This document shows positions 36,844-53,054 of a stretch of DNA of 64,000 bases, piece after piece (position 1 is the stretch's first letter; each line of letters begins with the position of its first letter). The notes under the pieces are model-generated. The model had not been told where the DNA came from and did not search any database. It saw only the letters and a list, made by a program, of their open reading frames with translations. The position numbers and the translations under genes are program-made. Origin of the DNA: an uncultured Bacteroidota bacterium (GTDB taxonomy: Bacteria > Bacteroidota > Bacteroidia > AKYH767-A > OLB10); assembly GCA_900696575.1 (NCBI GenBank), contig CAADHD010000018.1:151106-215105 (forward strand). Reading direction: 5' to 3'.

Positions 36844-39800
36844 ATGAAAGCATTCAGTCGTTTCTTTTGTCTGATTCTGTTTAAGATGATTATTGTTTAT
36901 CATGCATCAGGACAGGGTATAATACGCGGAAAAATATCTGACCAGAATGGAGAGCCGCTGATTGGTGCCACTGTTGTGCTGAAAGACAACCGCAGTATAG
37001 GCACCAGCGCTGATCTGGACGGCAATTATTCGCTGAAGATTACCGATACTTCTGCTCAGACCCTGATTATTTCTTTCATCAGTTTCAAAACCATTGAAGA
37101 AACGGTTCATCCTAAAAAAGGAGAAGTCATTATCCGGAATTTCATCATGAAACCTGCCACACAGGAAATTCAGGCAGTTGAAATCACGGCCAAACAATTG
37201 CGCGAGAAGGAGTCTTACATTGAAAAGGTAAAAATCAATTCGTCCGTAACGCTTGATTATGTTTCTGCCGAAAGTATTAAACGCACAGGCGATGCCAATG
37301 TGGTAACTGCCGTAGCGCGGGTACCGGGTATTTCAACAACGGGAAGCATAATAACCGTAAGAGGCGTAGGCGACCGTTATATTAAAACAGCGGTGAACGG
37401 ATTTAAAATCCCAACCCTTGATCCGTTTACCAATAACTTTAAACTTGACCTGATTCCATCGGCTCTTGTTGACAATGTCATTGTTACCAAAACAGCCAGC
37501 GCTGATTTGCCCGGTGACTGGGCAGGCGCTTATCTTTCGGTTGAGACCAAAGATTACCCCGAGAATCTTAGCATCAACATTGAATCATCGTTAACCTATA
37601 ACCCGCAAACAACCTTTAAAAAAATACTGACTTCGCAACGCAGCAAAACCGACTGGCTTGGCTATGACAGCAACCTGCGCGAGTATCCGCATGAAGATTT
37701 TTCATCCGTACAAATCTCGCCAAGCCTGTACAAAGAATTTGTGGCGCTTGGACTGGGCGGTTACTTCAACTCCATAGGAGTAACTCCCAATACGCCCTGG
37801 AATGATACCTATTACAAACTGGCTCTTGTTGAGCTTGGACTTTTACCCAAGGCCCTTTTTGATAATGAAGCCGCTTTTACCGAAGCAAAAAACAAATTCC
37901 TGCAAGGCGATTATAGAAACCGGGCTTTTGAAATAATTAACCGCGATGCCATTGAAGCAGCCAAAAAATTTCCAACTAACTGGAACACTCAATACCGCAA
38001 AGCGCCTCTCGGGTTTTCACAGAATATCTCCGTAGGAAATCAAACCACACTGTTTAATCGTCCTCTAGGATTTCTTTTTGGTTTGCGCTACGGAAGTTCA
38101 ACGCAGTATGACCCGCGTTCAACTTACAACAAAGGGGTGAATATTGATGGAGTAAAAACCAGTTCGCTGGATACCTTGCCGCAAGTCATCAGCAAAGAAA
38201 CCAACGGGTGGAGCGCCCTGATGAATCTTTCTTACAAGCTCAATTCAAACAATAGTATTGGTTTTATCTTTATGCCTAATCTTACAGGCGTAAATGATGT
38301 ACGCATTACCCGCGAGCCTTATGTGGATGGCAATGCATATTACCTTATTAACCGCAGCCAGTTTTATGAGGAACGTAAACAGTTGGTTTATCAATTACAG
38401 TCTCAGCATTATATCCCATCCATTAAATTAAAGACTGATATCCGTGCTGCTTACACAAACGGCAGCAGCAATGCCCCCGATTTTAAACGAATCATCTACC
38501 TGAAAGACCAGCAGGACAGCGCGCTTTCCATTGGAGGCAGCATAGGTGGAAATGCTGTTGCTAAAGGCGGTATTCACCGTTACTACCGTTATCTGAATGA
38601 CGACTTGCTTGATACTAAAATCGCTTTTGAGCTTCCGCTTCGCCCTCAGCCCGGCATGGCCCGCAAACTCATGTTCGGTGGCGGGTACCTGCGTAACGAT
38701 TGGAAGTTCAGACAATACGATTACTTGGTCAACTTCAGTCCGTTTGGCTTTGACCCTCTCTATGAAGAAGATTTTGATTTCTATTTCAGGCCGGATAAGT
38801 TTGACTTTAATACTTTTCAGTTTAACGGCCAGCCTGTTTTAAGTGTCAGTAATTATTATTCGGAAAGCGGAAGTCCTTCGAACTTTATTATTGGTGAAAC
38901 AACCATTATTTCGGCCTACACAATGGCTGATATAAATATTACCTACAGGATAAGGGCTGCGGCAGGAGTTCGTGCGGAACGTGCCAACTTGTTTACCGAT
39001 GCTTTTGGTTATGACTCTTTAGGATATCTAAAAGACGATCCGCGCAGGCAGACCTTGGCCGATGACTTTATTCTCAATCCTGCCAACATTATAAAAACCA
39101 GCTATCTGCCCAGTTTCAATCTCGTTTACAAACTGAAAGATGACGAGTTCCGCCCGGTTAACCTCAGGCTAAATTACAGCCAGACGGTGGCGCGCCCCGG
39201 CCTGAGAGAGCTTTCCGAATCTGTGGTGTATGACAATGAGCGCAGAAAAAATGTCTTCGGGAATGCTGAATTGAAAATGGCAAACATTTACAATTACGAC
39301 ATCAGGACAGAATCCTATTTTAAAAACGGAGATAATGTTTCGCTAAGCTTATTCTACAAGCATATTAAAAATCATATTGAACTGATTGAATATACACAGG
39401 GCTTCACATGGGTGAATGTGGATAAATCCATTGTGCAGGGCATTGAACTGGAAGGAAGAAAAAAGCTTCCTTTCAATTTTGAACTGAAAGCAAATGTTAC
39501 GATGGTAAAATCAGAATCTGATGTTGTCAGAAAAAGAATTGTTGTAGAAAATGGCATTAAAGCATTTATACCAATTGATACGATTACTCGTACCATGTAC
39601 GGGCAGGCACCTTATGTAGTTAATGTTATTCTTGGCTACATTGCCGACAGCCTCGGTTTGCAGATTACCGCAAGCTATAACTTGCAGGGTAAACGGCTTG
39701 TGATTGCCGAATCGGATCTGCTTTCCAATATCTATGAATTGCCCCGTCATCATGTTGATTTTAAAATTTCCAAAAAGCTTGGAAAACATTTCAGCACCAG

Positions 39801-39921
39801 TTTAACCATACGCGATGTTTTAAATACTCCGGTAAGACTTGCAGGCGATGGATGGAAACTCGATTATGAGAACATTAAGTATGGAAGAAGCTATTCTTTA
39901 GGCATTAGTTACCGGTTTTAA
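36844..39921 (+). CDS. TonB-dependent receptor with N-terminal CarboxypepD_reg-like domain
   Basis: IRGKISDQNGEPLIGATV, plug RVPGIS..ITVRGVGDRY, barrel NYDIRTESY, C-terminal YSLGISYRF; no SusD follows. Confidence 0.92.
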   Translation: MKAFSRFFCLILFKMIIVYHASGQGIIRGKISDQNGEPLIGATVVLKDNRSIGTSADLDGNYSLKITDTSAQTLIISFISFKTIEETVHPKKGEVIIRNFIMKPATQEIQAVEITAKQLREKESYIEKVKINSSVTLDYVSAESIKRTGDANVVTAVARVPGISTTGSIITVRGVGDRYIKTAVNGFKIPTLDPFTNNFKLDLIPSALVDNVIVTKTASADLPGDWAGAYLSVETKDYPENLSINIESSLTYNPQTTFKKILTSQRSKTDWLGYDSNLREYPHEDFSSVQISPSLYKEFVALGLGGYFNSIGVTPNTPWNDTYYKLALVELGLLPKALFDNEAAFTEAKNKFLQGDYRNRAFEIINRDAIEAAKKFPTNWNTQYRKAPLGFSQNISVGNQTTLFNRPLGFLFGLRYGSSTQYDPRSTYNKGVNIDGVKTSSLDTLPQVISKETNGWSALMNLSYKLNSNNSIGFIFMPNLTGVNDVRITREPYVDGNAYYLINRSQFYEERKQLVYQLQSQHYIPSIKLKTDIRAAYTNGSSNAPDFKRIIYLKDQQDSALSIGGSIGGNAVAKGGIHRYYRYLNDDLLDTKIAFELPLRPQPGMARKLMFGGGYLRNDWKFRQYDYLVNFSPFGFDPLYEEDFDFYFRPDKFDFNTFQFNGQPVLSVSNYYSESGSPSNFIIGETTIISAYTMADINITYRIRAAAGVRAERANLFTDAFGYDSLGYLKDDPRRQTLADDFILNPANIIKTSYLPSFNLVYKLKDDEFRPVNLRLNYSQTVARPGLRELSESVVYDNERRKNVFGNAELKMANIYNYDIRTESYFKNGDNVSLSLFYKHIKNHIELIEYTQGFTWVNVDKSIVQGIELEGRKKLPFNFELKANVTMVKSESDVVRKRIVVENGIKAFIPIDTITRTMYGQAPYVVNVILGYIADSLGLQITASYNLQGKRLVIAESDLLSNIYELPRHHVDFKISKKLGKHFSTSLTIRDVLNTPVRLAGDGWKLDYENIKYGRSYSLGISYRF

Positions 39922-39933
39922 AAAAAACAGAAA

Positions 39934-41286
39934 ATGAAAATCAACTATCCCATCAAGCTCCTCATTATTCTGGCTATTACAGTAAAAGGCATTCATGCCA
40001 ATGCGCAGATTGAAAACCTTATTGTAGAAACTTATTATATCAGCGACTCATTAGACGCTACCGACAGTACGCAGGGGCGTACCATAGAACCTGGCTCGGT
40101 TACCTATCGTGTATATCTTGATCTTGCTGCCGGAAGTAAAATTAAAAAAATTTACGGAGATCAGAATCATCCGCTCATTATAAGAAGCACGGAAGATTTA
40201 TATAATAACATTGATCGCCCAAACGCCTATTTCGGCTATTTGATAAACCGAAATTGGTTTTCCGGCAATCCAACTATTAGCCTTGACAGTTGGCTAACAC
40301 TGGGTATTGCCTGCCGGCTTTCCTCCACACAATACTATGGTGTATTAAAAACAGAAGATACAGATGGCTCCTTCGTTGGTGGAAGTAACAATCAGGGAGG
40401 CACCAGCGGTATTCCCGGAGGCATATTGGTGAACAATGATCCCGAAGCCGGAATACCTTTAACGGTTGCTGATGGATATTTATCAGGAGCATCTCCTGCA
40501 GGCCAGTGGTTTGATTACGGTTTTTTTGATGCATCTCTCGGTCACGATACCACCGTTTTCGGATCGCTCTATACAGGTAAAGAATTCAACAGCCGTATAG
40601 CCGTACTTCAACAGGGCGATGGAGTAGCAGGCATAACGGCTGATAATATCGTGTTGGTGGCCCAGGTAACCACCAAAGGACAATTGTCTTTTGAACTGAA
40701 TGTTCAGCTTGAAGAAGCGGATGGTACTATTGTGCATTATGTGGCTGATGATTCAGTGCTTATTAATACTTCTGTACCTCTTTATATTGAGCGTCTTAGT
40801 CCGTTTCTTAAATACCCTCCTGTTTGTGGTTGTTTAAACACCGACTACCTTGAATACAGCGCGGCTAATGCCTGTGAAAATAATGACTCTTGCAAAACAT
40901 TAATCGTTTTCGGTTGCATGGATCCGCTTGCCTGTAATTACAACGCTGAGGCTAACTATAACATAAAGGAACTCTGCTGTTATCCGGGATTGTGTGCCGA
41001 CAGAGATATTGAAGTGGTTTGTCCGTCATTAAAGAAGGCAAGACTTTTGGTTTCACCGAATCCTGCCGGAAATCAGATTGTATGGAACTTGATTGGCCCG
41101 GATAATGAGGACGGTTTTTTCACTATCTATAATGTTTCGGGAGAAAAAATGCTTCAGGGGAATTGGTCATCTGTATCCGAAGAACACGTGTTAGAGGTAG
41201 GAAGATTGCCGGAAGGATTTTACATTTTACAGGTGATGACCCAAAAAGGACTTTCACTGCATCAGTCATTCGTTATTTCACGATGA
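39934..41286 (+). CDS. T9SS cargo protein: uncharacterised domain (copy 3) + Cys-rich GCMDP.ACNY repeats + CTD
   Basis: Signal peptide A|Q; domain motifs; CGCLNTDYLEY / FGCMDPLACNYN; CTD VSPNPAG...LPEGFYILQV. Confidence 0.85.
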   Translation: MKINYPIKLLIILAITVKGIHANAQIENLIVETYYISDSLDATDSTQGRTIEPGSVTYRVYLDLAAGSKIKKIYGDQNHPLIIRSTEDLYNNIDRPNAYFGYLINRNWFSGNPTISLDSWLTLGIACRLSSTQYYGVLKTEDTDGSFVGGSNNQGGTSGIPGGILVNNDPEAGIPLTVADGYLSGASPAGQWFDYGFFDASLGHDTTVFGSLYTGKEFNSRIAVLQQGDGVAGITADNIVLVAQVTTKGQLSFELNVQLEEADGTIVHYVADDSVLINTSVPLYIERLSPFLKYPPVCGCLNTDYLEYSAANACENNDSCKTLIVFGCMDPLACNYNAEANYNIKELCCYPGLCADRDIEVVCPSLKKARLLVSPNPAGNQIVWNLIGPDNEDGFFTIYNVSGEKMLQGNWSSVSEEHVLEVGRLPEGFYILQVMTQKGLSLHQSFVISR

Positions 41287-41290
41287 AGCC

Positions 41291-42046
41291 ATGATAAAAT
41301 CAGCAAAACCTTTTTTTATATCGTTGTCATTTTGGATGGCGGCTATTGCTATGTTACTTTTTTCCGGCTGTGGAAAAGAAGTGAAAGAAATAGAAGATCC
41401 TGTTTTTGAAAAAGGAACGGTAACGGATATGGAAGGCAACATCTATGAAACAGTAAAAATCGGAAATCAATGGTGGATGGCTGAAAATCTGAAGAGCACC
41501 AAATTCCGTGATGGTTCGGACATTACCTTTATATCAAGACTTAACCCGGTTCGGTGGGATACCATTAATTCCTCTGCTTATAGCCAATACGAAGATAATC
41601 CTTCAGCGCCCGGGTTGCTTTATAACTGGTATGCGGTGAGTGATGCACGCGGACTTGCTCCTGAAGGATGGCGGATAGCAACTGATGAAGACTGGAAAGA
41701 ATTGGAAAGACATGCAGGCATGAGCAATGACGAGGCGGATGGACTTGCGTGGAGGGGCACTTATGAAGGCGACCACCTTAAAGTAAAAGCCCCGGAAGGG
41801 TGGACGCTGTTCGGTACTGTTTGGGGAGATAATAAAACAGGCTTTGCTGCCCTTGGCGGAAGCTGCCGTTTATTCAACGGGAATTTTGGCATACCGGGAT
41901 TAAAACAATCCGGGTTCTGGTGGACTTCTTCTTCTTTTGAAAACGGCCAGGCCTGGTACCGTTATCTCGATTACAAGAAATCGCAGGTGTTTCGTTCGCA
42001 TATAATGCATTCTTATGGTATGAGTGTGCGTTGCGTAAAAAACTAA
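41291..42046 (+). CDS. FISUMP (Fibrobacter succinogenes major paralogous domain) lipoprotein
   Basis: Lipobox FSGC; VTDMEGNIYETVKIGNQWWMAENL, GLLYNWYAV, PEGWRIA, GFWWTSS, GMSVRCVKN. Confidence 0.92.
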   Translation: MIKSAKPFFISLSFWMAAIAMLLFSGCGKEVKEIEDPVFEKGTVTDMEGNIYETVKIGNQWWMAENLKSTKFRDGSDITFISRLNPVRWDTINSSAYSQYEDNPSAPGLLYNWYAVSDARGLAPEGWRIATDEDWKELERHAGMSNDEADGLAWRGTYEGDHLKVKAPEGWTLFGTVWGDNKTGFAALGGSCRLFNGNFGIPGLKQSGFWWTSSSFENGQAWYRYLDYKKSQVFRSHIMHSYGMSVRCVKN

Positions 42047-42283: not shown

Positions 42284-43921
42284 ATGAAACAAAAAACAAA
42301 AACCAAATGGATCATGGTATCAGCACTTGGGCTGCTGATGTCATTCGGAAGCATGGCCCAATCCAACTTAGGCGCTGATTGCGGATGTCCTACACCCGTA
42401 TCATCGCGACCCACAGTAGCTCTTTCTACTCTTGCCGTTTCAGGCGGGGCAACGGACGGTGATCTTATTGCCAACAGTACCGTACTTACCTGCGACAAAA
42501 CATGGATTCTTGACAAAAAAATCTATGTGCCTGACGGGAAATCGCTCACCATCCAGGCCGGAACAGTGATTAAGGGAGTGGATACGATTACCATTCCTGC
42601 TAATGCTGTTGCATTGGTGGTATCAAGAGGCGGTAAAATTTTCGCTAACGGTACACCCACATGTCAGATTGTATTCACTGCCAATAGCGACAACCTTAGC
42701 GGAACCTATGGCATAGCCAATCGTGGCAAATGGGGCGGGGTAGTTGTTTGCGGGCGTGCGGTAAACAACATTGTAAGTTGCAATACGCTTTATGGGGGCA
42801 GCCCGGGCGTTGCTTTCCCTGAAGGTTTTTCAGCAGCTAATTCGCGCATTCTTTATGGAGGTTCTGATAATGATGACAACTCTGGTATCATGAGATATGT
42901 TTCTATTCGTCATGCCGGAGCTGTTATTTCAGCCGGTAACGAATTGAACGGATTAACACTTGGATCTGTTGGCCGCGGCACTACTGTTGAATATATTGAA
43001 GTGGTTTCGAATGATGATGATGGTGTTGAAGTATTCGGGGGTACCGTAAACCTCAAGTACATTTCAACTATGTTTCTTGCTGATGATGGTCTTGACTGGG
43101 ACCATGGTTGGGTTGGTAAAGCGCAGTTTATTTTCAACCTTCAGGCCGACAGTATTACAGCACCAACCGGAGATAACGGGTTTGAAGCCGATGCTACTGA
43201 CCAGAAAAACAATTCTGCAACTCCACGTTCGCATCCTGTCGTTTATAATGCAACAATGATTGGTTCCGGCAAACGCCTGAATGTTGCTGATAACAGCGGC
43301 CACAATGCTATTAACGCTAAAGAACTTACCGAAGGTGAAATTTACAATTCAGTATTCGCCAATTTCAACAGCGGATTGAATATGACTAAATCCTTGGGCA
43401 GTTCATCGGCCTGCGGTTCGCACCTAACCGAAGCTTACGATAACTGGATTGCAGGTTCACTTAAAATTCAATGCAACACTTTCTTTATGATGAATGATGC
43501 CAATAACGCCAGATTTCTTGTTCTTGATAACAGCCTGGCCAGTGTTACTCCGGCAGATGTTGCCAAATTTGATACAGACGGCAACCTGCGTCCTACAGGC
43601 ACCGCTCCGATACCCGGCTTTGATCATGTTTGGGCTATGAACTCCTCTACCAATGTGGTTTCTGATAAGTTTGATGCTGTTCCGAATCCGGCATTATCTA
43701 CTACCTGCACTCCTCCTAATGATGGCTTTTTTGTAAATGCAAATTATCGCGGGGCATTCGCTTCTACCGGAAAACCCTGGCTATCTCCATGGGCTTATGC
43801 CACTGTTCTGGGAGTTACTTCTAACCTGCAACCCTGTCCTACAGATATAAACGGAGATGGCATTACCAACAATGCTGACTTCCTGATTCTGCTTGGCCAG
43901 TTTAACCAGTCTTGTAACTAA
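42284..43921 (+). CDS. Secreted beta-helix (pectin-lyase-like) protein with C-terminal dockerin-like/EF-hand tail
   Basis: SPI signal A|Q; GKWGGVV, DDNSGIMRYVSIRHAG, NELNGLTLGSVGRGT, DDGVEVFGG, DDGLDWD repeats; tail CPTDINGDGITNNADFLILLGQFNQSC. Confidence 0.8.
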   Translation: MKQKTKTKWIMVSALGLLMSFGSMAQSNLGADCGCPTPVSSRPTVALSTLAVSGGATDGDLIANSTVLTCDKTWILDKKIYVPDGKSLTIQAGTVIKGVDTITIPANAVALVVSRGGKIFANGTPTCQIVFTANSDNLSGTYGIANRGKWGGVVVCGRAVNNIVSCNTLYGGSPGVAFPEGFSAANSRILYGGSDNDDNSGIMRYVSIRHAGAVISAGNELNGLTLGSVGRGTTVEYIEVVSNDDDGVEVFGGTVNLKYISTMFLADDGLDWDHGWVGKAQFIFNLQADSITAPTGDNGFEADATDQKNNSATPRSHPVVYNATMIGSGKRLNVADNSGHNAINAKELTEGEIYNSVFANFNSGLNMTKSLGSSSACGSHLTEAYDNWIAGSLKIQCNTFFMMNDANNARFLVLDNSLASVTPADVAKFDTDGNLRPTGTAPIPGFDHVWAMNSSTNVVSDKFDAVPNPALSTTCTPPNDGFFVNANYRGAFASTGKPWLSPWAYATVLGVTSNLQPCPTDINGDGITNNADFLILLGQFNQSCN

Positions 43922-43962: not shown

Positions 43963-46900
43963 ATGAAAAAGATGATGAAAAGCATCATGCTGGGTTTGGC
44001 CCTCATGATAACAGCTACAATGACCAAAGCCCAAGGAATTGAAAACGTGCAAGTGGAAATCTTTTATGTTTCCAATGCAGCCGATGCTGCCGGCAGTGCC
44101 GGTACGCTGCCTGCCGGATCTATCACCTACCGTATTTATGTGGATATGCTTCCGGGTTATAACTTCCAGGCGCTTTACGGATTGCCCGGTAAAGACACCC
44201 TGCGTGTTCAAACTTCCACTTCATTCTTCAATAATGAAGATTATGGCGGTACAACTCCTTCCATAAGCGTTACTAACGTGCGGAAAAATTCTGCTTTGCT
44301 CGATTCGTACTTCTCAGTTGGCGGAGCAGCCAACGGAAGAGTGGGAGTATTGAAAACAGAAGATACGGATGGGTCACCGGGTAATGCCGATAACATCCTT
44401 CAGAACAATGACCCCTATGCAGGAGGCATTCCAATTAATATCGGAACTACTACCAACACTACTGCACGTGATGGAATGATTCCCGGATCGCCTGTAGCCG
44501 TTACCTTTGTTGGTATCTCTGCTGCAGAGTTAGATGTCTTTGACGGTACAAGCCAGTCAGGAAACTTCTTCCAAACAGAGAACGGCTCCGTAGCTGCTCT
44601 TGGAGGTGCTACCGGCCCAACAGCAGCCAACCGTGTGTTGGTTGGACAGTTTACCACTGATGGAGTGTTCTCTTTTGCTCTGAACATTCAGATTGGAACT
44701 CCCGGTGGCGGTGTTGAAAATTATGTTCACTCAAACCCATCTGCCGGTGAATTTACTGCTCCTTTCCTTAAGCAGACTTTTGCCCCTCCCGGCTCCAACA
44801 CCCCTCCAACCATCAGTATTATTTCTCCGGTTAACGGCTCCAGTGTACTTGTTGGCTCTACCGTTACTATTGATGCCAATGCCAATGATGCTGACGGAAC
44901 CATTGATTCTGTTCAGTTCTTTGTTGATGCTGTTTATATCGGCTCTGATTTAACAGGCCCGAACCCTTATACCATTAACTGGACAGCTACCCTCGGCCCT
45001 CATACTTTGACTGCCCGTGCCTATGACAACAATGGAGCCTCCACGTTATCTTCAGGCATTAACATCAACGTAACCAGCAACCCTCCTCCGGCAGTTGCCA
45101 TTACTTCACCTGCCAACGGAGCATTGTTTACGGCACCAGCCATCGTTAGTATTTCTGCTACGGCTACCGATCCCAATGGTACTGTTGACTCAGTTCAGTT
45201 TTTTGTGAACAGCGTGTATGTAGGCTCTGACATTACTCCTCCTACTCCGTTTACTTTTGACTGGACAAGCGTTATTGGCACTGCCTCGCTTACCGCCCGC
45301 GCATGGGATAATAACGGAGCCTCTACACTTTCGGCTGCCGTTAATATCAACATCCTTGATCCAAATGCCCTGGGATACAAAGTAACTACTGTTGTAGCAA
45401 ACTGTTCTCAGAATTTGTTCTGTATTCCCGTAACTGCTGTGGATACGGTTGACAATATCATTGGTTATGATGTTGTACTTGATTATGATGAGAATAAAGT
45501 TACTCCTACAGGCGTAATTTCTGTAAGCAATGCTTTGATCAATCCGACATGGACATCAACGGCTCATAGTATTAATTCTGTAAACGGCACTATGAACATT
45601 TCTGTTTTCTTCAATGCCAATGCTCCTTCCAATGCTAAATTTCAGGGAACAGGCGATATCTTTTGTGTTCAGTTTTCAAAGAACATCACTTTCGGTATTG
45701 CTGACACCGCTGACTTCTCTGTTACGCAGCTTCAGGAAAGTTATGCTAACGGAGTTCAGCAACAATTGGCCGATGCTGGAAAGTTTATTACTTTCTCGGA
45801 TACTGATTTGGATGGTAAACTGAAATTCTGGTTCGATAGCAGTCCGATTAAATACGATGCTTTTAACCCTGCTGCGCACCTTATTACCAATATCTATGGC
45901 AACGACAATACCTGCGCTAACCGTTCAGCTACGGCTGTTCAGCCCGACCTCAATGGCGATTTCACGTACGATACTCAAAACGGTTCGCATGTCGAAATCA
46001 TTAAAGACATTGCAGGTACTACCGATGTGCAGCCCGTTGTAAATGGTTTTGATGCCTTCCTTACCCGTCTGGTATTGATTAACGACTTGTCTTTTATTCC
46101 CACCATTTTCCAGATTATCTCTATGGATGTTAACACCGATGGGGTGGTAAGTGCGGGCGACCTTTCGCAGATTAACCAACGTGCCGTCTTGCAAATTCCC
46201 GAATTCAAACAAAGCTGGAATTATGACATCAACGGTTTACCTCTCGGTCCGCCTTCTAAAGACTGGCTCTTCGTCAATCAGTCAACCTTGAACAGCAATC
46301 TGGCTTATCAAATCTCATCTACCTATCCGGGCAATGACGGAGTGGGTTATTCAAAATCCAATGTTCCGCAAGTGCCTTTCTGTTTGCCTGTTCCTTCTAT
46401 TATACTTAGTGGATGTGTACAGATTCAGGATGCCACTTATTTTGGTATGTTGCTCGGAGATGTTAACGGAAACTTTGCTACGGTTGTTCCTAACAGCGAG
46501 TTCCGTGCAGGCAACGACAAAGTAGTGTTTGACATGGAAAAAGCCCGCATTGAAAACGGATACTTGGATGTACCGGTTTCTTTTGTAAGCAATGAAAAAG
46601 TTCATGCCATTGACTTTGCCCTGCAGTTTGATAACAGCAAACTGGAGTTCAACACCATCGTAAATCACAATAGCGATTTACAGGTGCTGGCTAACATGAA
46701 CACGGTGGACAACACGCTTCGCTTTACTTCCAACAGTCTTGTTACTGTGGCTGAAAACAGCACTCCTGTTTCTGTTCGTTTTGCCCTTAAGTCAAATGCA
46801 GTTACAGCAAATGACCTTTCAGCCGTAAGCGCTTTCCTTAACGGTGAGCGTACAGGCGCTGAAGTGAAAGGCGCTCAGTTAACGACTGATTTCAGTGGCG

Positions 46901-47130
46901 TAATGGTTAATGTGTTTCCCAACCCCGCCCATGAAATGCTTAATGTAACCGTGTCAGAAGATGCTTCTGTTCAGCTTCTCGACATCACCGGAAAACAGAT
47001 TCTTGTTGAGAAAAACATACTGGCCGGTGAAGCTCATCAACTTGATATACGTACGCTTGCCAAAGGCGTGTATGTACTGAAAGTGTTTAACAAAGGCTTT
47101 ATTTCATTGAATAAAGTGGTTCTTAATTAA
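43963..47130 (+). CDS. Scaffoldin-like T9SS cargo: uncharacterised domain (copy 4) + 2x Ig-like (Big_7) + cohesin + dockerin-like + cohesin + CTD
   Basis: PPTISIISP..DADGTIDSVQF..TLTARAYDNNGA x2; IPVTAV..IIGYDVVLDYD..GTGDIFCVQF; VNGFDAFL..DVNTDGVVSAGDL; VPVSF..AIDFALQFD; VFPNPAHE..LAKGVYVLKV. Confidence 0.8.
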   Translation: MKKMMKSIMLGLALMITATMTKAQGIENVQVEIFYVSNAADAAGSAGTLPAGSITYRIYVDMLPGYNFQALYGLPGKDTLRVQTSTSFFNNEDYGGTTPSISVTNVRKNSALLDSYFSVGGAANGRVGVLKTEDTDGSPGNADNILQNNDPYAGGIPINIGTTTNTTARDGMIPGSPVAVTFVGISAAELDVFDGTSQSGNFFQTENGSVAALGGATGPTAANRVLVGQFTTDGVFSFALNIQIGTPGGGVENYVHSNPSAGEFTAPFLKQTFAPPGSNTPPTISIISPVNGSSVLVGSTVTIDANANDADGTIDSVQFFVDAVYIGSDLTGPNPYTINWTATLGPHTLTARAYDNNGASTLSSGININVTSNPPPAVAITSPANGALFTAPAIVSISATATDPNGTVDSVQFFVNSVYVGSDITPPTPFTFDWTSVIGTASLTARAWDNNGASTLSAAVNINILDPNALGYKVTTVVANCSQNLFCIPVTAVDTVDNIIGYDVVLDYDENKVTPTGVISVSNALINPTWTSTAHSINSVNGTMNISVFFNANAPSNAKFQGTGDIFCVQFSKNITFGIADTADFSVTQLQESYANGVQQQLADAGKFITFSDTDLDGKLKFWFDSSPIKYDAFNPAAHLITNIYGNDNTCANRSATAVQPDLNGDFTYDTQNGSHVEIIKDIAGTTDVQPVVNGFDAFLTRLVLINDLSFIPTIFQIISMDVNTDGVVSAGDLSQINQRAVLQIPEFKQSWNYDINGLPLGPPSKDWLFVNQSTLNSNLAYQISSTYPGNDGVGYSKSNVPQVPFCLPVPSIILSGCVQIQDATYFGMLLGDVNGNFATVVPNSEFRAGNDKVVFDMEKARIENGYLDVPVSFVSNEKVHAIDFALQFDNSKLEFNTIVNHNSDLQVLANMNTVDNTLRFTSNSLVTVAENSTPVSVRFALKSNAVTANDLSAVSAFLNGERTGAEVKGAQLTTDFSGVMVNVFPNPAHEMLNVTVSEDASVQLLDITGKQILVEKNILAGEAHQLDIRTLAKGVYVLKVFNKGFISLNKVVLN

Positions 47131-47156: not shown

Positions 47157-47198
47157 AAAATGCCCCGGCAAGTTTAGCGGCCGGGGCTTTTCTTTTTT
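47157..47198. terminator. Bidirectional intrinsic terminator
   Basis: GAAAAT-GCCCCGGC...GCCGGGGC-TTTTCTTTTTT between convergent operons. Confidence 0.75.
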
Positions 47199-47234
47199 CT
47201 TACGTTGCCGTTTGTATCATTAAAAACGATCTGA

Positions 47235-48563
47235 TTAAACCCGCTTAATAAAATCACTGTACCATCTACCCGAATTTTTTATTGTTCGCTTTAATGTTTC
47301 AAAATTCACATACACCAATCCGAAGCGTGGATGATATCCCTCACTCCATTCAAAATTATCGGTAAGCGACCACACAAAATAGCCTGAGACCGGACATCCT
47401 TCTTCTTTGGCTTTCAGCATCTGCTCAATGTAATGCTGTAGAAAATGGATTCGGTTATCGTCATTTACTTTGCCGTTTTCAATCGTATCATTAAAAGCGG
47501 CTCCATTTTCTGTTACGATGACTTGCCGGAAACCGTATTGACTGAATTTTTTTATCATGGCATAAAGTGATTCAGGATAAACTTCCCAGTTGAGTACGGT
47601 ATGATAAACCTTTCGTTCATGAGCAGGTACCGGCTTTCCGTTAAGAAAAGGAATATACCAGGCATGCCTGATAACCTCGCGGGTATAATTCTGTATTCCG
47701 ATAAAATCAAGCGGAGCGGTCATACGGATCTCATCGCCCGCTCTCATAATTTTTTCAACACGTTTCAGAAAAGGCAAATCCTTTACAGGATAACCCAGTC
47801 CGGCAGCAGGCTCTGCGAATAGCCGGTTAAGCAAGGCATCAAAACGGTGTGCTGCTTTTATATCTTTCTCTTTGGTTGAAAACGGTGTAATGTGCGAACA
47901 GGAAAAAGTTGAACCAATTAAATGCTGTTCTCCATACGAACGGATAACCCGTACTCCTTCGGCAAGGCTCAGCACTGCATGGTGCATGGCAGGAATAAAA
48001 TTTTTTAAGCCGCGTTTGCCGGGAGCATGAATGCCTAAGAAATACCCGGCTCCGGTAAATGCCATCGGCTCATTCAATACCATCCAGTGATTGGCCTTAT
48101 CTTGAAAATTTTTAAGACATACCTGTACATAATTGCAAAACCAGCTTACGATATCCCTGTTAACCCATCCTCCCTTTTCCTGCAGGGCCTGAGGCAAATC
48201 CCAGTGATAAAGCGTAACCCAAGGAGTTATGCCCCGCACCTGACAGGCATCCAGCACTCGGTGATAAAAACCCAGACCTTTTTGATTTACTGCCCCTGTG
48301 CCATCCGGAATAATTCTCGGCCACGAAAATGAAAACCGGAAATGGCGAATTCCAAGCTGATAAATAATATCCAGGTCTTCTTCAAAGCGGTAATAAAATT
48401 CCGTAGCCCTGTGTGCATGATGGCCGTTACGGATTTTCCTTTTCCGGCCGGTAAACACATCCCAGATGCTCAAGCCTTTTCCATCTTCCAGATAGGCGCC
48501 TTCCGTCTGAAAAGCAGAAGAAGCAACTCCCCAAATGAAATTGTTATTACCCTTTATAAGCAT
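47235..48563 (-). CDS. Beta-glucosidase (GH1)
   Basis: WGVASSAFQTEGA, RFSFSWPRI, TLYHWDLP, NEP acid/base, VTENG nucleophile, DNFEW. Confidence 0.95.
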   Translation of the reverse strand: MLIKGNNNFIWGVASSAFQTEGAYLEDGKGLSIWDVFTGRKRKIRNGHHAHRATEFYYRFEEDLDIIYQLGIRHFRFSFSWPRIIPDGTGAVNQKGLGFYHRVLDACQVRGITPWVTLYHWDLPQALQEKGGWVNRDIVSWFCNYVQVCLKNFQDKANHWMVLNEPMAFTGAGYFLGIHAPGKRGLKNFIPAMHHAVLSLAEGVRVIRSYGEQHLIGSTFSCSHITPFSTKEKDIKAAHRFDALLNRLFAEPAAGLGYPVKDLPFLKRVEKIMRAGDEIRMTAPLDFIGIQNYTREVIRHAWYIPFLNGKPVPAHERKVYHTVLNWEVYPESLYAMIKKFSQYGFRQVIVTENGAAFNDTIENGKVNDDNRIHFLQHYIEQMLKAKEEGCPVSGYFVWSLTDNFEWSEGYHPRFGLVYVNFETLKRTIKNSGRWYSDFIKRV

Positions 48564-48590
48564 GCAGGCAAAGATGATGCACCTGCTGTG

Positions 48591-49631
48591 TTATCGGAAA
48601 AGTCTGTATTCGGTGTGGCGGCTTACATAAGGAACAGCCTTTTCTGTATGATGGTTTTCCATGATAGTAGCAATGATTTCCTGTACATGGTCAGGATAAT
48701 TTACCTCAATCATGCTCTTGCGGTCAATCCAATCGTTTATCTTTTCATAATGTTTTTTCTTCAGGCTTTTTATCACTTTAACACCCATGGATTTAAGCAT
48801 GGCGGCATTACAATGCTGCTCATACTGCATCTTCATGGGGATGACTAACATTTTCTTATTCAGAAAAAGTGCCTCGGAAGTGGTTCCAAAACCTGCATTG
48901 CAAAGAATGCCTTCGCATGATGCCAGACTTTTTACAAACCGCTCATGTTCCAATGGCCATACACGGACATTTTTTTCGCGGTGTTTCTTTTTACAGTGTT
49001 TTGAGAATACCTGCCATTCGCATTTTTTAAAACGCGTAAGGTGTTTGCTGATTCTGTCATCATCATAGCTGGGAAGATAAACCGTAAAGTGTCCTTCATT
49101 ACTCACTTGCTGCTCACGGATTTCTTTACGGATAACGGGAGTGAAAATGTTTTTGTCGAGCCGTTTATAATGAAAACCATAATTGACTGTGGTTGGGGCG
49201 TAATGATCGAGCACCATTTTGCCCAATAGATCATTCGATTTCGGTTTAGGTGCCAGCGGATGCAAGGTGGCGATCTGATTGCTCAGTCCTATGCAGGTTC
49301 TTTTTGCCATCAGGCATGCCCATGACGATACCGGCTCAAAATCGCTGATGACCATGTCGTATTGCTCCACATTCAGGCTTCGGATTTCTTTAAGCAGCCG
49401 CAGGGAGTTCATGCGCAGGTATGTTTGCCATACATTGATGCCTCCAGTTTTACCAAAGATGAATGACAAACCCTGCAAACGGTATTTCACTTCAAAAGGC
49501 AGAGGCAAATCAGCCTGAATGCCGCTGAGTAATACATCGGTTTCTCCATATTTTTTAAGAGCGGGAACAATATCCATGGCACGGGTCAGGTGGCCGTTTC
49601 CGGTGGCTTGTATGGCATAAAGTATTTTCAT
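48591..49631 (-). CDS. Glycosyltransferase, MJ1255/VC2487-like GT-B family
   Basis: MKILYAIQATGNGHLTRA, ISDFEP, CNAGFGTTSEAL, QYEQHCNA. Confidence 0.85.
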   Translation of the reverse strand: MKILYAIQATGNGHLTRAMDIVPALKKYGETDVLLSGIQADLPLPFEVKYRLQGLSFIFGKTGGINVWQTYLRMNSLRLLKEIRSLNVEQYDMVISDFEPVSSWACLMAKRTCIGLSNQIATLHPLAPKPKSNDLLGKMVLDHYAPTTVNYGFHYKRLDKNIFTPVIRKEIREQQVSNEGHFTVYLPSYDDDRISKHLTRFKKCEWQVFSKHCKKKHREKNVRVWPLEHERFVKSLASCEGILCNAGFGTTSEALFLNKKMLVIPMKMQYEQHCNAAMLKSMGVKVIKSLKKKHYEKINDWIDRKSMIEVNYPDHVQEIIATIMENHHTEKAVPYVSRHTEYRLFR

Positions 49632-49636
49632 GGTGT

Positions 49637-50527
49637 TTAATTGTTTTTACTTTGTTTTACAAAAGGGGTTAATTCGCGGAAATCGGACAGCATGTGCCTG
49701 AAAATTTCTTCGTTTTTCAACAGTATAAATTTGTCTTCTTCCTGTTCCTGCACTTCGTCTCCGGCAGGCGGCTGTTCGGTATGCCGATAAATTTTCCATA
49801 TCCCTTCATGATATTCTAAAGCGCTGAGGTTTTCAATCCAGTCGCCCGAGTTGAGGTAGATTACGGGTCCTTTATCAGTAGCAATGGTTTTGATTTCAGG
49901 ATGATGAATATGCCCGCAGACTACATACCGGTAATGATTTTTGGCAGCCAGAGCGGCACAGGTGTTTTCAAATGAGTTGATATAACTCACCGCCTGTTTT
50001 ACGTTGTTCTTGATTTTTTTGGAAAGAGAGATGCGTCCGCGTCCGGTTTGTTCGCTGATAAAGTTGCAGAAGGTGTTGAGATGAATAAGCCAGTTGTAAC
50101 CGACCGAACCGAGGCGTGCCAGCCATCGGGCATGTTGCATGGTTATGTCAAAAACATCGCCATGAAAAATCCATGTTTTGCCTTCAGGAAGGTTAAGTAC
50201 CAATTTGTTTTCAATCATAAAATTGGAAAGACGGAAGCCGGCAAAGCGCCTCAGCATTTCATCGTGATTGCCGGTGAGGTAATAAACCGTTACTCCTTTC
50301 TTAAGCCATTTGGTTATCTGGTGAATAACCTGCATGTGCGACTTTGGGAAATACTTCTTGTCAAACTGCCACACATCAATGATGTCGCCATTCAGAATCA
50401 CTGTTTCCGGCTGAATGCTTTTCATATAAGCAACCAATTCTTTGGCACGGCATCCATACGTGCCGAGATGCACATCGGAGATCACTACTATTTCTACTTT
50501 TCGTTTTGTTTTAGGATAAGTATTCAT
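49637..50527 (-). CDS. Metallophosphoesterase of the UDP-2,3-diacylglucosamine hydrolase superfamily, PlcP-like
   Basis: SDVHLG, GDIIDVW, FPKSH, TGNHDEMLR, HGDVFD, CGHIHHP, YLNSGDWIE. Confidence 0.85.
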   Translation of the reverse strand: MNTYPKTKRKVEIVVISDVHLGTYGCRAKELVAYMKSIQPETVILNGDIIDVWQFDKKYFPKSHMQVIHQITKWLKKGVTVYYLTGNHDEMLRRFAGFRLSNFMIENKLVLNLPEGKTWIFHGDVFDITMQHARWLARLGSVGYNWLIHLNTFCNFISEQTGRGRISLSKKIKNNVKQAVSYINSFENTCAALAAKNHYRYVVCGHIHHPEIKTIATDKGPVIYLNSGDWIENLSALEYHEGIWKIYRHTEQPPAGDEVQEQEEDKFILLKNEEIFRHMLSDFRELTPFVKQSKNN

Positions 50528-50708: not shown

Positions 50709-50827
50709 TATTAACACAGAATCGTTGACGGCAAAACCATCATAGCCGATTTAATTATTTCATAAACTTTTTTTTACGCTGCTGGCCGAAACCGCTTATA
50801 CTTTTGGGTTCCCAAACCGCTTCAACC

Positions 50828-51592
50828 ATGACCAAATCCTTCTACCTTGTGGCTTTATGTTCTTTTTTATTTTCTGCAGGCATCAGTGTTCAAGCACAGG
50901 AGAACAAAGTATCTCCGCCTGTAACCGCAAACATTGATCAGTTTGATTCTGTAGTGTTCGACCTTTCACAGGCTGTTGTCGCCAACGGCTATTTGGAGTT
51001 CCCTGTGTATTTCAAAACGGATGATGTAATCTATTCACTTGATTTTTCGCTTAAATACAATCAGACCAAATATCTGTATGATACCATCATTGATATGACC
51101 ACTTACCTCCTTGATAATTCGTTTTACAACCAATTTGACTCAACTATCCGTTTCACCTCAAGCAGTCTGACTCCCATTCCCAATTTGACGCAATTGGTAA
51201 AAGTACGATTCGACACCATCACTACCAGCCTCATGTGCTTTGGTGATATTTTTACGCTTAAGGGATATCTCAATGGCGACCAATGCAGCGTTAAATTAGT
51301 TGACTGCAACCTGCTTTCTGTTTCAGAGAATTCATTCAATCACGGAAGTATTGTCATATTTCCGGTTCCTTCTAAGGAGGTCATTCATGTCCGCATGAAT
51401 GAATTGATTCAGAATGCTGTTATATCAATGACGGATTTATCAGGCAGAATCATTGAAGAGCAAAATCATCAGATTGTTCAGCCCGGTTCAACCGTTTCTT
51501 TTGAAACGGGTAATCTGTCCGATGGGGTTTACTTGGTAACCGTTAAATCCGGAAGAAATACGTTTACCGGGAAAGCGGTCATCAACAAATAA
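50828..51592 (+). CDS. T9SS cargo: single cohesin-like domain + CTD
   Basis: Signal peptide A|Q; FPVYFKTDDVIYSLDFSLKY..RFTSSSL..VKVRF; CTD IFPVPSKE..LSDGVYLVTV..GKAVINK; TACTTTTG -7 box upstream. Confidence 0.8.
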   Translation: MTKSFYLVALCSFLFSAGISVQAQENKVSPPVTANIDQFDSVVFDLSQAVVANGYLEFPVYFKTDDVIYSLDFSLKYNQTKYLYDTIIDMTTYLLDNSFYNQFDSTIRFTSSSLTPIPNLTQLVKVRFDTITTSLMCFGDIFTLKGYLNGDQCSVKLVDCNLLSVSENSFNHGSIVIFPVPSKEVIHVRMNELIQNAVISMTDLSGRIIEEQNHQIVQPGSTVSFETGNLSDGVYLVTVKSGRNTFTGKAVINK

Positions 51593-51776: not shown

Positions 51777-53054
51777 GTGAAACCTGTTTTCCGGGGCCTT
51801 CTTGCGCTTGCCATTGTCTGTCTCTCAATGTGCAGTTGTGTTAATGCGCAACCCGGCATGTCAACATCCTTAAGTGTAACCGCCATTGATCAATACGATT
51901 CTGTTTTTTTCGATTTGTCGCAGGCTGCCTGTATCTCCACCCTGGCTCAGTTTCCTGTCTTTATAAAGACGGATGACCCGGTATATGCGCTTGACTTCTC
52001 ACTGAAATTTGATGTAACCAAAATGGCTTATCACTCTATCGTTATTCATCAGGGTTACCTGATGGCATCAGCCAATTACAACAGTGCTGACAGTACGTTG
52101 CGTTTTACTTCCTCCAGCATGACTCCCATCGGTAATCTTGTTTCATTAGTATCAGTAAGATTTACTATGCTTAACGGTGGGCAGATTAACGATTCAGACC
52201 TCAACCCTAAATCATCATTGCTGAATGGAACATCCTGCTCGCGCAGAATTGTTCACGGAGCTTTACAGCCTGTATTAAATCCTGCCGGAGTTTTAATTAT
52301 TGATCCCGGTGACAGCATTACGCTTTCGGTCAGCGCTCCCGTAAACAGCTCCTTCCTTTGGTCAACCAGCACAACAGCTAATTCCATTGTTGTTTACGCT
52401 GCAGGAAATTATTCAGTTACCGTTACTACACAGGCAGGATGTAATATCAATCTCAGTGCTTCCATTCAATATACTTCTCCATTACCTGTGCAACTCTTGG
52501 TGTTTTCGTTAAAAATGATTTCGGGTAATGTATTGGTTCAATGGATAACCGTTTCAGAAGTAAACAATGATTTCTTTACAGTCGAACGCTCTGCTGACGG
52601 AATACATTTTGAAGATATTGGAATTGTGGATGGTGAAGGGAACAGTACTCAATTGCTCACCTATCAGTTGTTGGATGATAAACCTCTGTCCGGAATTTCT
52701 TTTTACCGCCTTAAACAAACCGACTTTGACGGGAAGTTTACCTACTCGCAAACCGTAAGCATCAGTAATGTTAATGTAACCGATGAAACGTTTACGTTAT
52801 TCCCCAATCCGGCAAACCAATACATCAATATCCGTGGTAATAATTTTTCTGAAGAGAGTTTGGAAGTAGGCTTATACAAAGCAGAATTGATGGATATGTC
52901 AGGCAAGGTGATGAAGAGCATACAAGTTACAGGCATAGAGCAACAGATGGATGTAAGTCAACTGCCGGCAGGAATTTGTTTTATGCGAATTCTTCCGGCC
53001 GCACCAGGCAATGATTCAAAGATGTTTTTGCAGCGGGTGGTGGTAATGCATTGA
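51777..53054 (+). CDS. T9SS cargo: cohesin-like + Ig-like + Fn3-like + CTD
   Basis: FPVFIKTDDPVYALDFSLKFD; AGNYSVTVT; PLPVQLL..SEVNNDFFTVERS..YRLKQTDFDG; LFPNPAN CTD; GTG start. Confidence 0.82.
   Translation: MKPVFRGLLALAIVCLSMCSCVNAQPGMSTSLSVTAIDQYDSVFFDLSQAACISTLAQFPVFIKTDDPVYALDFSLKFDVTKMAYHSIVIHQGYLMASANYNSADSTLRFTSSSMTPIGNLVSLVSVRFTMLNGGQINDSDLNPKSSLLNGTSCSRRIVHGALQPVLNPAGVLIIDPGDSITLSVSAPVNSSFLWSTSTTANSIVVYAAGNYSVTVTTQAGCNINLSASIQYTSPLPVQLLVFSLKMISGNVLVQWITVSEVNNDFFTVERSADGIHFEDIGIVDGEGNSTQLLTYQLLDDKPLSGISFYRLKQTDFDGKFTYSQTVSISNVNVTDETFTLFPNPANQYINIRGNNFSEESLEVGLYKAELMDMSGKVMKSIQVTGIEQQMDVSQLPAGICFMRILPAAPGNDSKMFLQRVVVMH

Follow-up and report, generated by a model that had tools for sequence, protein, structure and literature searches.

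A gene of an uncultured Bacteroidota bacterium encodes what we judge, at a probability of roughly 0.55, to be the hub, or adaptor scaffoldin, of a small, closed cohesin–dockerin complex on the cell surface. It is located within a stretch of 64,000 nucleotides of contig CAADHD010000018.1 (hereafter the window, whose numbering is used throughout) and is an uninterrupted open reading frame on the forward strand, 43963–47130. Its 1055-residue product (P0001) is built, from the N- to the C-terminus, of a signal peptide, a head domain, two Big_7 domains, a first cohesin (Coh1), a dockerin (Doc) flanked by two accessory segments (preDoc and postDoc), a second cohesin (Coh2), and a type A C-terminal domain (CTD) of the type IX secretion system, or T9SS. 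A closed inventory of docking modules in the genome, together with strict synteny, argues that these cohesins and this dockerin act on the proteins of their own locus. An earlier reading made from the letters of the window (the sequence-only reading) had proposed a scaffoldin with two cohesins, an internal dockerin, two immunoglobulin-like (Ig) domains and a CTD, and the reading frame and this architecture are borne out by Pfam, AlphaFold2 (AF2), Foldseek and family profiles.

Identity of the Cohesin and Dockerin Modules

It is strongly supported that the protein carries two genuine cohesin-fold modules and a dockerin with one canonical Ca loop. When the whole protein was scanned against Pfam, the cohesin family matched in two stretches (25 bits; cut-off 24.1) and Dockerin_1 matched over half its length at 19.7 bits, below its cut-off of 22.9. 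Scanned as a segment of its own, Coh2 (residues ~869–960) scored 25.3–25.9 bits with PF00963, above the gathering score of 24.1, while Coh1 (residues ~490–575) stayed below it at 16.3 bits (E 0.011); the dockerin segment scored 18.0–20.9 bits with PF00404 against the cut-off of 22.9, and aligned with model positions 2–40 of 57 only. The three segments were also excised from diverse homologues. PF00404 matched all 46 of the Doc segments (alignment A3; best E 9.6e-11) without a competing family, and PF00963 matched 16 of 30 Coh1 segments (A4; best 1.5e-8), where no other family recurred, and 16 of 32 Coh2 segments (A5; best 1.6e-7). Against PDB sequences, the Doc family profile retrieved dockerins exclusively, with 8ajy_B among the matches and 4fl4_A the best (E 7.2e-6) in an alignment covering helix 1, the linker and repeat 2. 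The Coh2 profile retrieved the Archaeoglobus fulgidus cohesin 2xdh (E 4.7e-5), and the top match of the Coh1 profile, the cohesin 5lxv_A, was not significant (E 0.15). When the whole protein and the whole-family profile were searched against PDB sequences, only the Big_7 and CTD parts were matched, and head, preDoc and postDoc were not.

An AF2 model of residues 465–985, aligned with 120 homologues (A1), has a mean predicted local distance difference test score (pLDDT) of 90.8, with values above 90 over residues 465–835, and a predicted TM-score (pTM) of 0.77. From N- to C-terminus it shows a beta-sandwich (472–622), short strands (643–680), three helices, a mixed segment to ~830, a linker, and a second beta-sandwich with strands at residues 853–969; the sole low-confidence linker, 842–849, precedes this second sandwich. 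In the model and in Foldseek comparison, the sandwiches correspond to the cohesin fold, which is a nine-stranded beta jelly-roll of ~140 residues. Foldseek of the model against the PDB returned almost exclusively cohesins, dozens of them at probability 1.00, including single modules at a target-normalised TM-score (TMt) of 0.72–0.78 (5nrm_A, 3ul4_A, 1aoh and the archaeal 2xdh at 0.73). The top matches overall were 4fl4_I and 3kcp_A, the CohI9-X-DocII fragment of Clostridium thermocellum CipA, at E ~1e-10 over 231–235 columns. Foldseek aligns sequentially, and the additional columns of these targets are C-terminal to their cohesin; this match must therefore sit on Coh1 and what follows it, and it gives Coh1 the structural support that its sequence score lacks. 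The positions assigned by the sequence-only reading to Coh1 (45400–45760, residues 480–600), the dockerin (46010–46200, residues 683–746) and Coh2 (46510–46870, residues 850–970) agree, to a few residues, with the modelled sandwiches, helices and Ca loop.

The dockerin occupies 46003–46197 (+; residues 681–745), as placed by the AF2 helices, the Ca loop, the family profile and PF00404. Its helices (695–705, a linker helix at 715–721, and 731–741) adopt the three-helix arrangement of dockerins. The second repeat contains a canonical Ca loop, DVNTDGVVSAGD (D722-V-N-T-D-G-V-V-S-A-G-D733), with the family consensus D-V-N-x-D-G-x-[IV]-[ST]-[AS]-G-D, in which positions 1, 3, 5 and 12 are invariant, and the adjoining helix SAGDLSQINQR is nearly invariant across the family. 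The first repeat keeps its helix and spacing and aligns with helix 1 of 4fl4_A, but its loop is degenerate (T-T-D-V-Q-P-V-V-N-G-F-D), with Asp-12 as the sole invariant position. In the duplicated motif described by the sequence-only reading, the first member, VNGFDAFL, is the end of the degenerate first repeat, and the canonical Ca loop belongs to the second repeat only.

Coh1 (45364–45837, +; residues 468–625), which is defined by AF2, Foldseek, the family match to PF00963 and covariation, forms a class of its own with a Cys pair, C487–C568. Coh2 (46513–46887, +; residues 851–975) is placed by PF00963, 2xdh and BLAST, and shares the class of the cohesins of two neighboring proteins, p262 and p425. 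A BLAST comparison of Coh1 with Coh2 gives E > 0.5 and a cross-match of their hidden Markov models (HMMs) is marginal (independent E-value 0.014), while Coh2 matches the mini-cohesins of p262 and p425 at E ~1e-23. Judged by sequence, the two cohesins are of different classes, as had been proposed, and Coh2 is paralogous to the mini-cohesins. Both keep an Asp in strand 3 (D503 in Coh1, D884 in Coh2), which we take to align with the dockerin-contacting Asp of CipA cohesins. Coh2-class cohesins are weakly conserved, at 25–44% identity with N960 and G961 as the only invariant residues.

These data bear on the idea that the modules merely resemble docking partners in fold, as generic beta-sandwiches and an EF-hand-like Ca site without a docking role. 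Two of the three modules of the window protein fall below the Pfam gathering score, the best PDB match of the Coh1 profile is insignificant, dockerin repeat 1 is degenerate, and the genome has no dockerin-bearing enzymes. We nevertheless consider a fold-only resemblance very improbable, given that the family-level Pfam tallies show no competing family, that the PDB profile matches are solely dockerins and cohesins, that Foldseek assigns probability 1.00 to dozens of cohesins, and that helix 1, linker and repeat 2 are all covered when the segment is aligned to a real dockerin. Cohesins and dockerin-like plugs also share a locus in 26 of 26 cases.

An Inseparable Unit and a Separable Cohesin

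More than 404 close homologues of the cassette were found, most of them 46–58% identical over residues 465–985, mostly 1030–1150 residues long, and from uncultured Bacteroidia or Bacteroidota. Their annotations go no further than "Ig-like domain-containing" or "T9SS type A sorting domain-containing". When 1.84 billion representatives were searched exhaustively, 682 clusters matched at E ≤ 1e-3, and E ≤ 1e-30 was reached by 260; the matches ran end to end in nearly all cases. In an architecture survey of 267 homologues scanned with our own HMMs, Coh1, preDoc, Doc and postDoc occurred together and in the same order in every protein, and were duplicated as a block once (P0130). Head copies varied from 1 to 3 and Big_7 copies from 0 to 8, and Coh2-class cohesins were mobile, some homologues having an extra copy at the N-terminus or amid the Ig repeats. 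Two readings of the survey were discarded. First, the cassette is not carried on many different heads, as the longer proteins mostly just gain Big_7 or head copies. Second, Coh2 had seemed to be absent in ~9 homologues; these contain 120–135 residues with a cohesin-like strand-3 motif between postDoc and CTD, and Coh2 is therefore divergent there, not absent.

Covariation points to how the core is held together. In a mean-field direct coupling analysis (DCA) of 262 cassette sequences with an effective number (Meff) of 229, the top pair was C651–C807, which connects preDoc (45838–46002, +; residues 626–680, with AF2 strands at 643–647, 666–670 and 676–680) to postDoc (46198–46512, +; residues 746–850, delimited by conservation, pLDDT and DCA, and also containing C818). 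Cysteine covariation of this kind points to a disulfide by which the dockerin is enclosed in a loop, and C487–C568 within Coh1 ranked third. As a positive control, 56 of the top 80 pairs were intra-domain, and the helix 1–helix 3 pairs of the dockerin were recovered (T701–L734, L705–L734, V704–M721). The inter-domain pairs among the top 80 included 8 between Doc and postDoc, 6 between Coh1 and postDoc, and 2 between postDoc and Coh2. The four segments are thus apparently stapled by a C651–C807 disulfide, and the pairs are suggestive of a postDoc that cradles the dockerin and leans on Coh1, much like an X-module packed on a dockerin. Since a pTM of 0.77 over 521 residues goes with a single weak linker ahead of Coh2, we infer that Coh1 and the middle module, together ~71% of the modelled residues, form one rigid body to which Coh2 is tethered. 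Coh1-preDoc-Doc-postDoc is an inseparable unit in the survey and, judging from the model, a probably rigid one. The "beta linker" that the sequence-only reading placed after Coh1 does exist as a beta segment, yet it belongs to this conserved middle module of ~225 residues and is not a loose linker.

At its end, postDoc has the conserved motif G-D-V-N-G-N-[YF], here GDVNGNF (residues 831–837, nucleotides 46453–46473). In rare homologues that terminate after postDoc the motif extends to a full 12-residue EF-hand-like loop, D-V-N-G-N-Y-x-x-I-x-N-D-G-x-L-K (14060–14123 of locus L006, from a Saprospiraceae metagenome-assembled genome, MAG). Judged by its sequence, the G-D-V-N-G-N motif might mark a third Ca site where the modules meet.

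Genuine variants that lack Coh2 and CTD and stop right after postDoc are P0187, P0216 and P0181; for P0187, a protein of 748 residues, the stop was verified in the DNA of L006, where unrelated genes lie downstream. The postDoc–Coh2 junction is a natural module boundary, because these variants end there and it coincides with the sole low-confidence linker. The window protein would accordingly read as a head-Ig-Coh1-X-Doc protein fused to a Coh2-CTD protein in a Rosetta-stone-type fusion. The cassette occurs in 21 of 61 related genomes, in each case as a single full copy next to small Coh2 genes. Tandem cassette genes were also observed: in the Saprospiraceae MAG, a full cassette protein is followed by a CTD-less head-Big7-Coh1-X-Doc protein (L006, 8306–14123), and in a Bacteroidales MAG (L007, 3169–11830) a protein of 1026 residues is followed by one of 1805 residues in which a third cohesin is inserted among eight Big_7 repeats.

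The inseparability of the unit also speaks for the main rival to the hub. In that explanation, which we regard as possible but unlikely, the cassette is a pedestal stabilised by Ca and disulfides, with the dockerin locked in cis by postDoc, Coh1 or both, and never binding in trans. The sole job of such a stalk would be to hold the head and Ig domains off the membrane, and at most one cohesin would take up a half-dockerin of the kind described below. The four segments are never split and are duplicated as a block, pLDDT exceeds 90 across the unit, the 8 Doc–postDoc and 6 postDoc–Coh1 pairs and the C651–C807 loop tie the dockerin to its neighbors, the protein has a CTD anchor of its own, and there is a single cassette per genome. 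Several observations fit a stalk poorly, however. On its polar face (S-A-G-D-x-S-Q-I-N-Q-R), dockerin helix 3 is almost invariant among proteins that are otherwise 35–55% identical, which exceeds the usual need of a buried helix, and in the cellulosomal X-Doc modules of 3KCP and 4FL4 packing against a neighbor coexists with binding in trans. The CTD-less variants that end in X-Doc would be anchorless if their dockerin were inert, and the fact that a half-dockerin gene is strictly adjacent argues for the use of at least some sockets.

Predicted Export and a Closed Set of Candidate Partners

The protein has the attributes of T9SS type A cargo. Its CTD (residues 984–1055, 46912–47130 on the forward strand with the stop codon) scores above both curated cut-offs, at 45 bits with PF18962 (cut-off 27) and 36.9 bits with TIGR04183 (cut-off 23). 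A Sec signal, read from the sequence, spans residues 1–23 (43963–44031, +; ...TKA|QG), and the same genome encodes the T9SS translocon SprA (TIGR04189, 2616 bits). Given signal, CTD and machinery, the protein is likely to be exported by the type IX system and to be attached to the outer membrane on its outer face.

The candidate partners are encoded nearby. Directly upstream, separated from the scaffold gene by 41 nucleotides, lies the gene for p545 (42284–43921, +), a beta-helix protein of 545 residues with a Sec signal and no CTD. Its C-terminus is a single-loop "half-dockerin", CPTDINGDGITNNADFLILLGQFNQSC (residues 518–544, nucleotides 43835–43915), which consists of one EF-hand-like loop and a helix between two flanking Cys and is nearly invariant in 24 distinct sequences. 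At positions 10/11 of the Ca loop the internal dockerin has A-G and the half-dockerin N-x. Downstream are p262 (50804–51592, +, with a probable start at ATG 50828), a mini-scaffoldin of signal, Coh2-class cohesin and T9SS CTD, and p425 (51777–53054, +), which also starts with a signal and in which a middle region separates the Coh2-class cohesin from the T9SS CTD. HMM scans of all open reading frames of the 2.87-Mb genome turned up nothing further at E < 0.1, be it cohesin, dockerin or half-dockerin, and no dockerin-bearing enzyme. The genome therefore has four sockets (one Coh1 and three of the Coh2 class) and two plugs, all on four proteins of this locus.

This arrangement recurs in other genomes. 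In a set of 26 loci, comprising the window and 25 loci from other genomes or metagenomes, the beta-helix half-dockerin gene lies directly upstream of the cassette gene in all 26. The conserved order is head, head-CTD, TonB-dependent receptor, head-CTD, FISUMP, beta-helix, cassette, and zero to three Coh2-CTD genes, and it reaches Saprospiraceae and Bacteroidales MAGs whose cassettes are only 40–45% identical. In the window, three minus-strand genes (47235–50527) stand as a block between the scaffold gene and the two Coh-CTD genes; they encode a family 1 glycoside hydrolase (GH1) beta-glucosidase, a glycosyltransferase of family 1 and an LpxH-like metallophosphoesterase (63 bits in NCBIfam, under the cut-off). 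As none of the 25 other loci has anything at this place, the block is an insertion specific to this genome.

Possible Modes of Assembly

Two cohesin classes and two chemically different plugs in one conserved locus fit an adaptor with two specificities, and of the functions that the sequence-only reading had offered this one agrees best with the data. In the hub that we propose, the two Ig spacers would hold the head domain off the cell while the cohesins recruit the plug-bearing partners of the locus, first of all the CTD-less p545, whose half-dockerin would stand in for any other anchor. The rigid Coh1-X-Doc unit, resembling that of CipA, would take the p545 half-dockerin on one cohesin, and the internal X-Doc-like plug would engage a socket of the Coh2 class, be it the protein's own, that of another copy, or that of p262 or p425. 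Such docking between X-Doc and Coh2 could bundle the CTD-anchored subunits around the TonB-dependent receptor. Coh2 sits next to the CTD on a short flexible linker, and its class otherwise occurs as stand-alone Coh-CTD proteins. Plugging of X-Doc into the Coh2 class is favored because the fused and split variants provide a Rosetta-stone-type argument, in which interacting proteins are fused in some genomes.

Several points weigh against the hub, beginning with the Pfam scores of Coh1 and the dockerin given above. First, the CTD of the protein itself would make the dockerin unnecessary for anchoring. Second, a nearly invariant dockerin helix 3 facing a poorly conserved Coh2 would make an awkward interface. 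Third, the top 80 DCA pairs include one weak Doc–Coh2 pair and one Coh1–Doc pair (V598–S730, rank 21), and since Meff is 229 the covariation is suggestive at best and too weak to assign plugs to sockets. Fourth, the rigid body is read from pLDDT and pTM. Finally, no route by which the beta-helix partner p545 would cross the outer membrane is known.

The same plugs and sockets could in principle serve self-assembly, and the sequence-only reading had suggested filaments or a lattice. The internal dockerin would then plug Coh1 or Coh2 of the next molecule, and chains would form head to tail, or else a lattice anchored by CTDs, in which the Coh-CTD mini-proteins would serve as chain terminators or additional anchor points. 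With two plugs and four sockets in the genome, two of the four candidate sockets of the internal dockerin lie on its own protein; the linker between postDoc and Coh2 (842–849) is short, and such tethers often favor trans over cis binding. Self-recognition with inferred multimerisation has been reported for Ruminococcus bromii Amy4 (PMC4611034). We nonetheless regard self-polymerisation as improbable. Nothing direct points to chains: the unit is inherited as a block, the dockerin covaries mainly with postDoc and almost not at all with Coh1 or Coh2, and AF2 neither positioned Coh2 confidently against the remaining modules nor docked the dockerin on it with confidence. Anchoring of each molecule by its CTD would further limit the geometry of a chain. 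In CipA, ScaA and ScaB the cohesins and the dockerin on one chain differ in specificity, which prevents self-association, and such a difference among chain-mates is seen in characterised scaffoldins.

We find it similarly doubtful that the protein daisy-chains through X-Doc and Coh2 into a lattice with the mini-proteins as nodes and the four heads as ligand catchers. In such a lattice CTD-less subunits such as p545 would surface only by binding, through their single-loop dockerin, a cohesin on a partner that has a CTD, and they may pass the T9SS translocon piggy-back.

Head Domain and Remaining Features of the Locus

The head domain (residues 24–280; 44032–44802, +) is mostly beta and is shared with three paralogues in the locus. 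No match was found for its 257 residues in Pfam or NCBIfam scans. The AF2 model of the head is confident (pLDDT 94.2, pTM 0.92), and Foldseek found no significant fold match for it in the PDB (best E 0.25), making the head a candidate for a new ligand-binding fold. This beta-rich domain of ~250 residues occurs four times in the locus, at 44032–44802, 34687–35514, 35685–36794 and 39934–41286, and the scaffold copy is 51, 41 and 34% identical to those of p369, p275 and p450, respectively (BLAST E 3e-71 to 8e-27). The first residue past the predicted cleavage site, Gln24 (codon at 44032), is invariant in 114 of 114 aligned head-bearing proteins; N-terminal pyroglutamate formation has been described for secreted Bacteroidota proteins, and an invariant mature Gln fits this. 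Behind the head lie the two Big_7 Ig domains (residues ~282–371 and ~375–464; 44806–45354, +), identified by PF17957 (E 2.4e-30) and by PDB sequence matches to 9x9r, 9kvu and 3pdd, which would act as spacers.

Upstream, the locus has on the forward strand a head-only protein (34687–35514) and a head-CTD protein (35685–36794). They are followed by the TonB-dependent receptor (36844–39921, +), which has CarboxypepD_reg and Plug domains, finds its best NCBIfam match in TonB-Xanth-Caul, and has no SusD partner. The head-Cys-rich-CTD protein p450 (39934–41286, +) comes directly after the receptor, so that one head copy occupies the usual position of a SusD gene. Between its head and CTD, p450 carries an insert with ~14 Cys in ~70 residues (residues ~325–390, window positions 40900–41150), for example PPVCGCLNTDYLEY...CENNDSC...CMDPLACNYN...CCYPGLC. 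A FISUMP lipoprotein (41291–42046, +) lies between p450 and p545.

Downstream of the scaffold gene, a GC-rich hairpin (CCCCGGC...GCCGGGG) followed by TTTTCTTTTTTC can be read directly from the sequence at 47163–47200 (+). It is a probable bidirectional terminator common to the convergent scaffold and GH1 genes; a consensus scan missed it because its loop is 10 nucleotides long. A scan for sigma-70 promoters performed at chance (41 found, 40.8 expected), the consensus being uninformative for Bacteroidota.

Comparison With Known Docking Systems

The closest structural parallel is the CohI9-X-DocII fragment of CipA (3KCP, 4FL4), where a cohesin likewise precedes an accessory module packed on a dockerin. 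The CipA cohesin receives the dockerins of enzymes, and X-Doc plugs into cohesins that belong to separate cell-anchoring proteins, a layout that is mirrored by the Coh1-preDoc-Doc-postDoc unit and the separate Coh-CTD proteins of the window. Identity to the CipA fragment is only 13–15%, however, and the differences are considerable. The window dockerin is internal, being followed by a cohesin and a T9SS CTD on the same chain, has one canonical Ca loop, and is flanked on both sides by accessory segments that are apparently disulfide-linked. Its host is a Gram-negative Bacteroidota that would use T9SS anchoring instead of S-layer homology (SLH) domains or sortase, and the system includes neither a carbohydrate-binding module (CBM) nor dockerin-bearing glycoside hydrolases.

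In cellulosomes it is usual for a scaffoldin to carry cohesins together with a dockerin whose specificity differs (PMC4959524). Adaptor scaffoldins such as Acetivibrio cellulolyticus ScaB and Ruminococcus flavefaciens ScaC bridge two layers in this way (PMC4959524), but their dockerin is terminal and they have no membrane anchor of their own, whereas the window protein has an anchoring CTD beside two cohesin classes and an internal dockerin. A cellulosomal scaffoldin gathers dockerin-bearing carbohydrate-active enzymes (CAZymes) on several cohesins and usually comes with a CBM. The window protein has two cohesins but no CBM, and its genome no dockerin-bearing glycoside hydrolase; because CBM and dockerin-bearing CAZymes are absent, we do not file it as a cellulosome component, although it plausibly works like an adaptor scaffoldin. 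Cohesin and dockerin also share one protein in Amy4 of R. bromii, whose cohesin was shown experimentally to bind its own dockerin, with multimerisation inferred (PMC4611034). This closest precedent means that self-polymerisation would not be unprecedented, yet Amy4 is a GH13 enzyme of a Firmicutes amylosome, with a single cohesin and a canonical dockerin at its C-terminus.

According to Peer et al. (2009), as cited in PMC8542988, non-cellulosomal cohesins and dockerins occur in all domains of life. One example of such use outside plant cell-wall degradation is 2XDH of A. fulgidus, the top match of the Coh2 profile, but phylum, architecture and anchoring differ, and these modules come without a described TonB-receptor locus. 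Group-2 truncated dockerins of R. flavefaciens (9GVB, 8AJY) function with a single Ca-coordinating loop (PMC12270676), a precedent both for the p545 half-dockerin and for an internal dockerin with one good loop. Identity to them is low, the half-dockerin differs in being bracketed by Cys and protein-terminal, and the tripartite binding mode has been described for group 2. Cohesins also go together with a T9SS-type CTD in a tandem-cohesin, scaffoldin-like protein inferred from the sequences of Cloacimonadota MAGs (PMC8542988), within the Fibrobacteres-Chlorobi-Bacteroidetes (FCB) superphylum. That system is cellulosome-like, with many tandem cohesins, CBMs and several dockerin-bearing hydrolases, whereas the window system has four cohesins, two plugs, a fixed TonB-receptor locus and no dockerin-bearing CAZyme. 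A limited full-text literature search found no account of a Bacteroidota T9SS cohesin–dockerin locus around a TonB-dependent receptor, and no description of the Coh-X-Doc-Coh-CTD cassette.

Implications for Bacteroidota Surface Biology

Pairing of cohesins with dockerins is the textbook principle of cellulosome assembly in Gram-positive anaerobes, and nutrient capture in Bacteroidota is thought to run through SusC/SusD loci and single proteins anchored by the T9SS. The family described here, which is large, conserved and without a functional annotation in the sources consulted, joins both worlds, with cohesins and dockerins on T9SS cargo, a fixed TonB-receptor locus, and a head without a fold match in the PDB. 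Four sockets and two plugs give an interaction matrix of only 8 pairs, and therefore an unusually tractable model. The locus could show how minimal cohesin–dockerin networks encode specificity, how single-loop dockerins work, and how CTD-less proteins get to the Bacteroidota surface, and its modules could serve as orthogonal docking parts for surface display in these bacteria. If the lattice, which we hold to be doubtful, should prove true, it would be a previously undescribed Gram-negative surface machine around a SusD-less TonB-dependent receptor.

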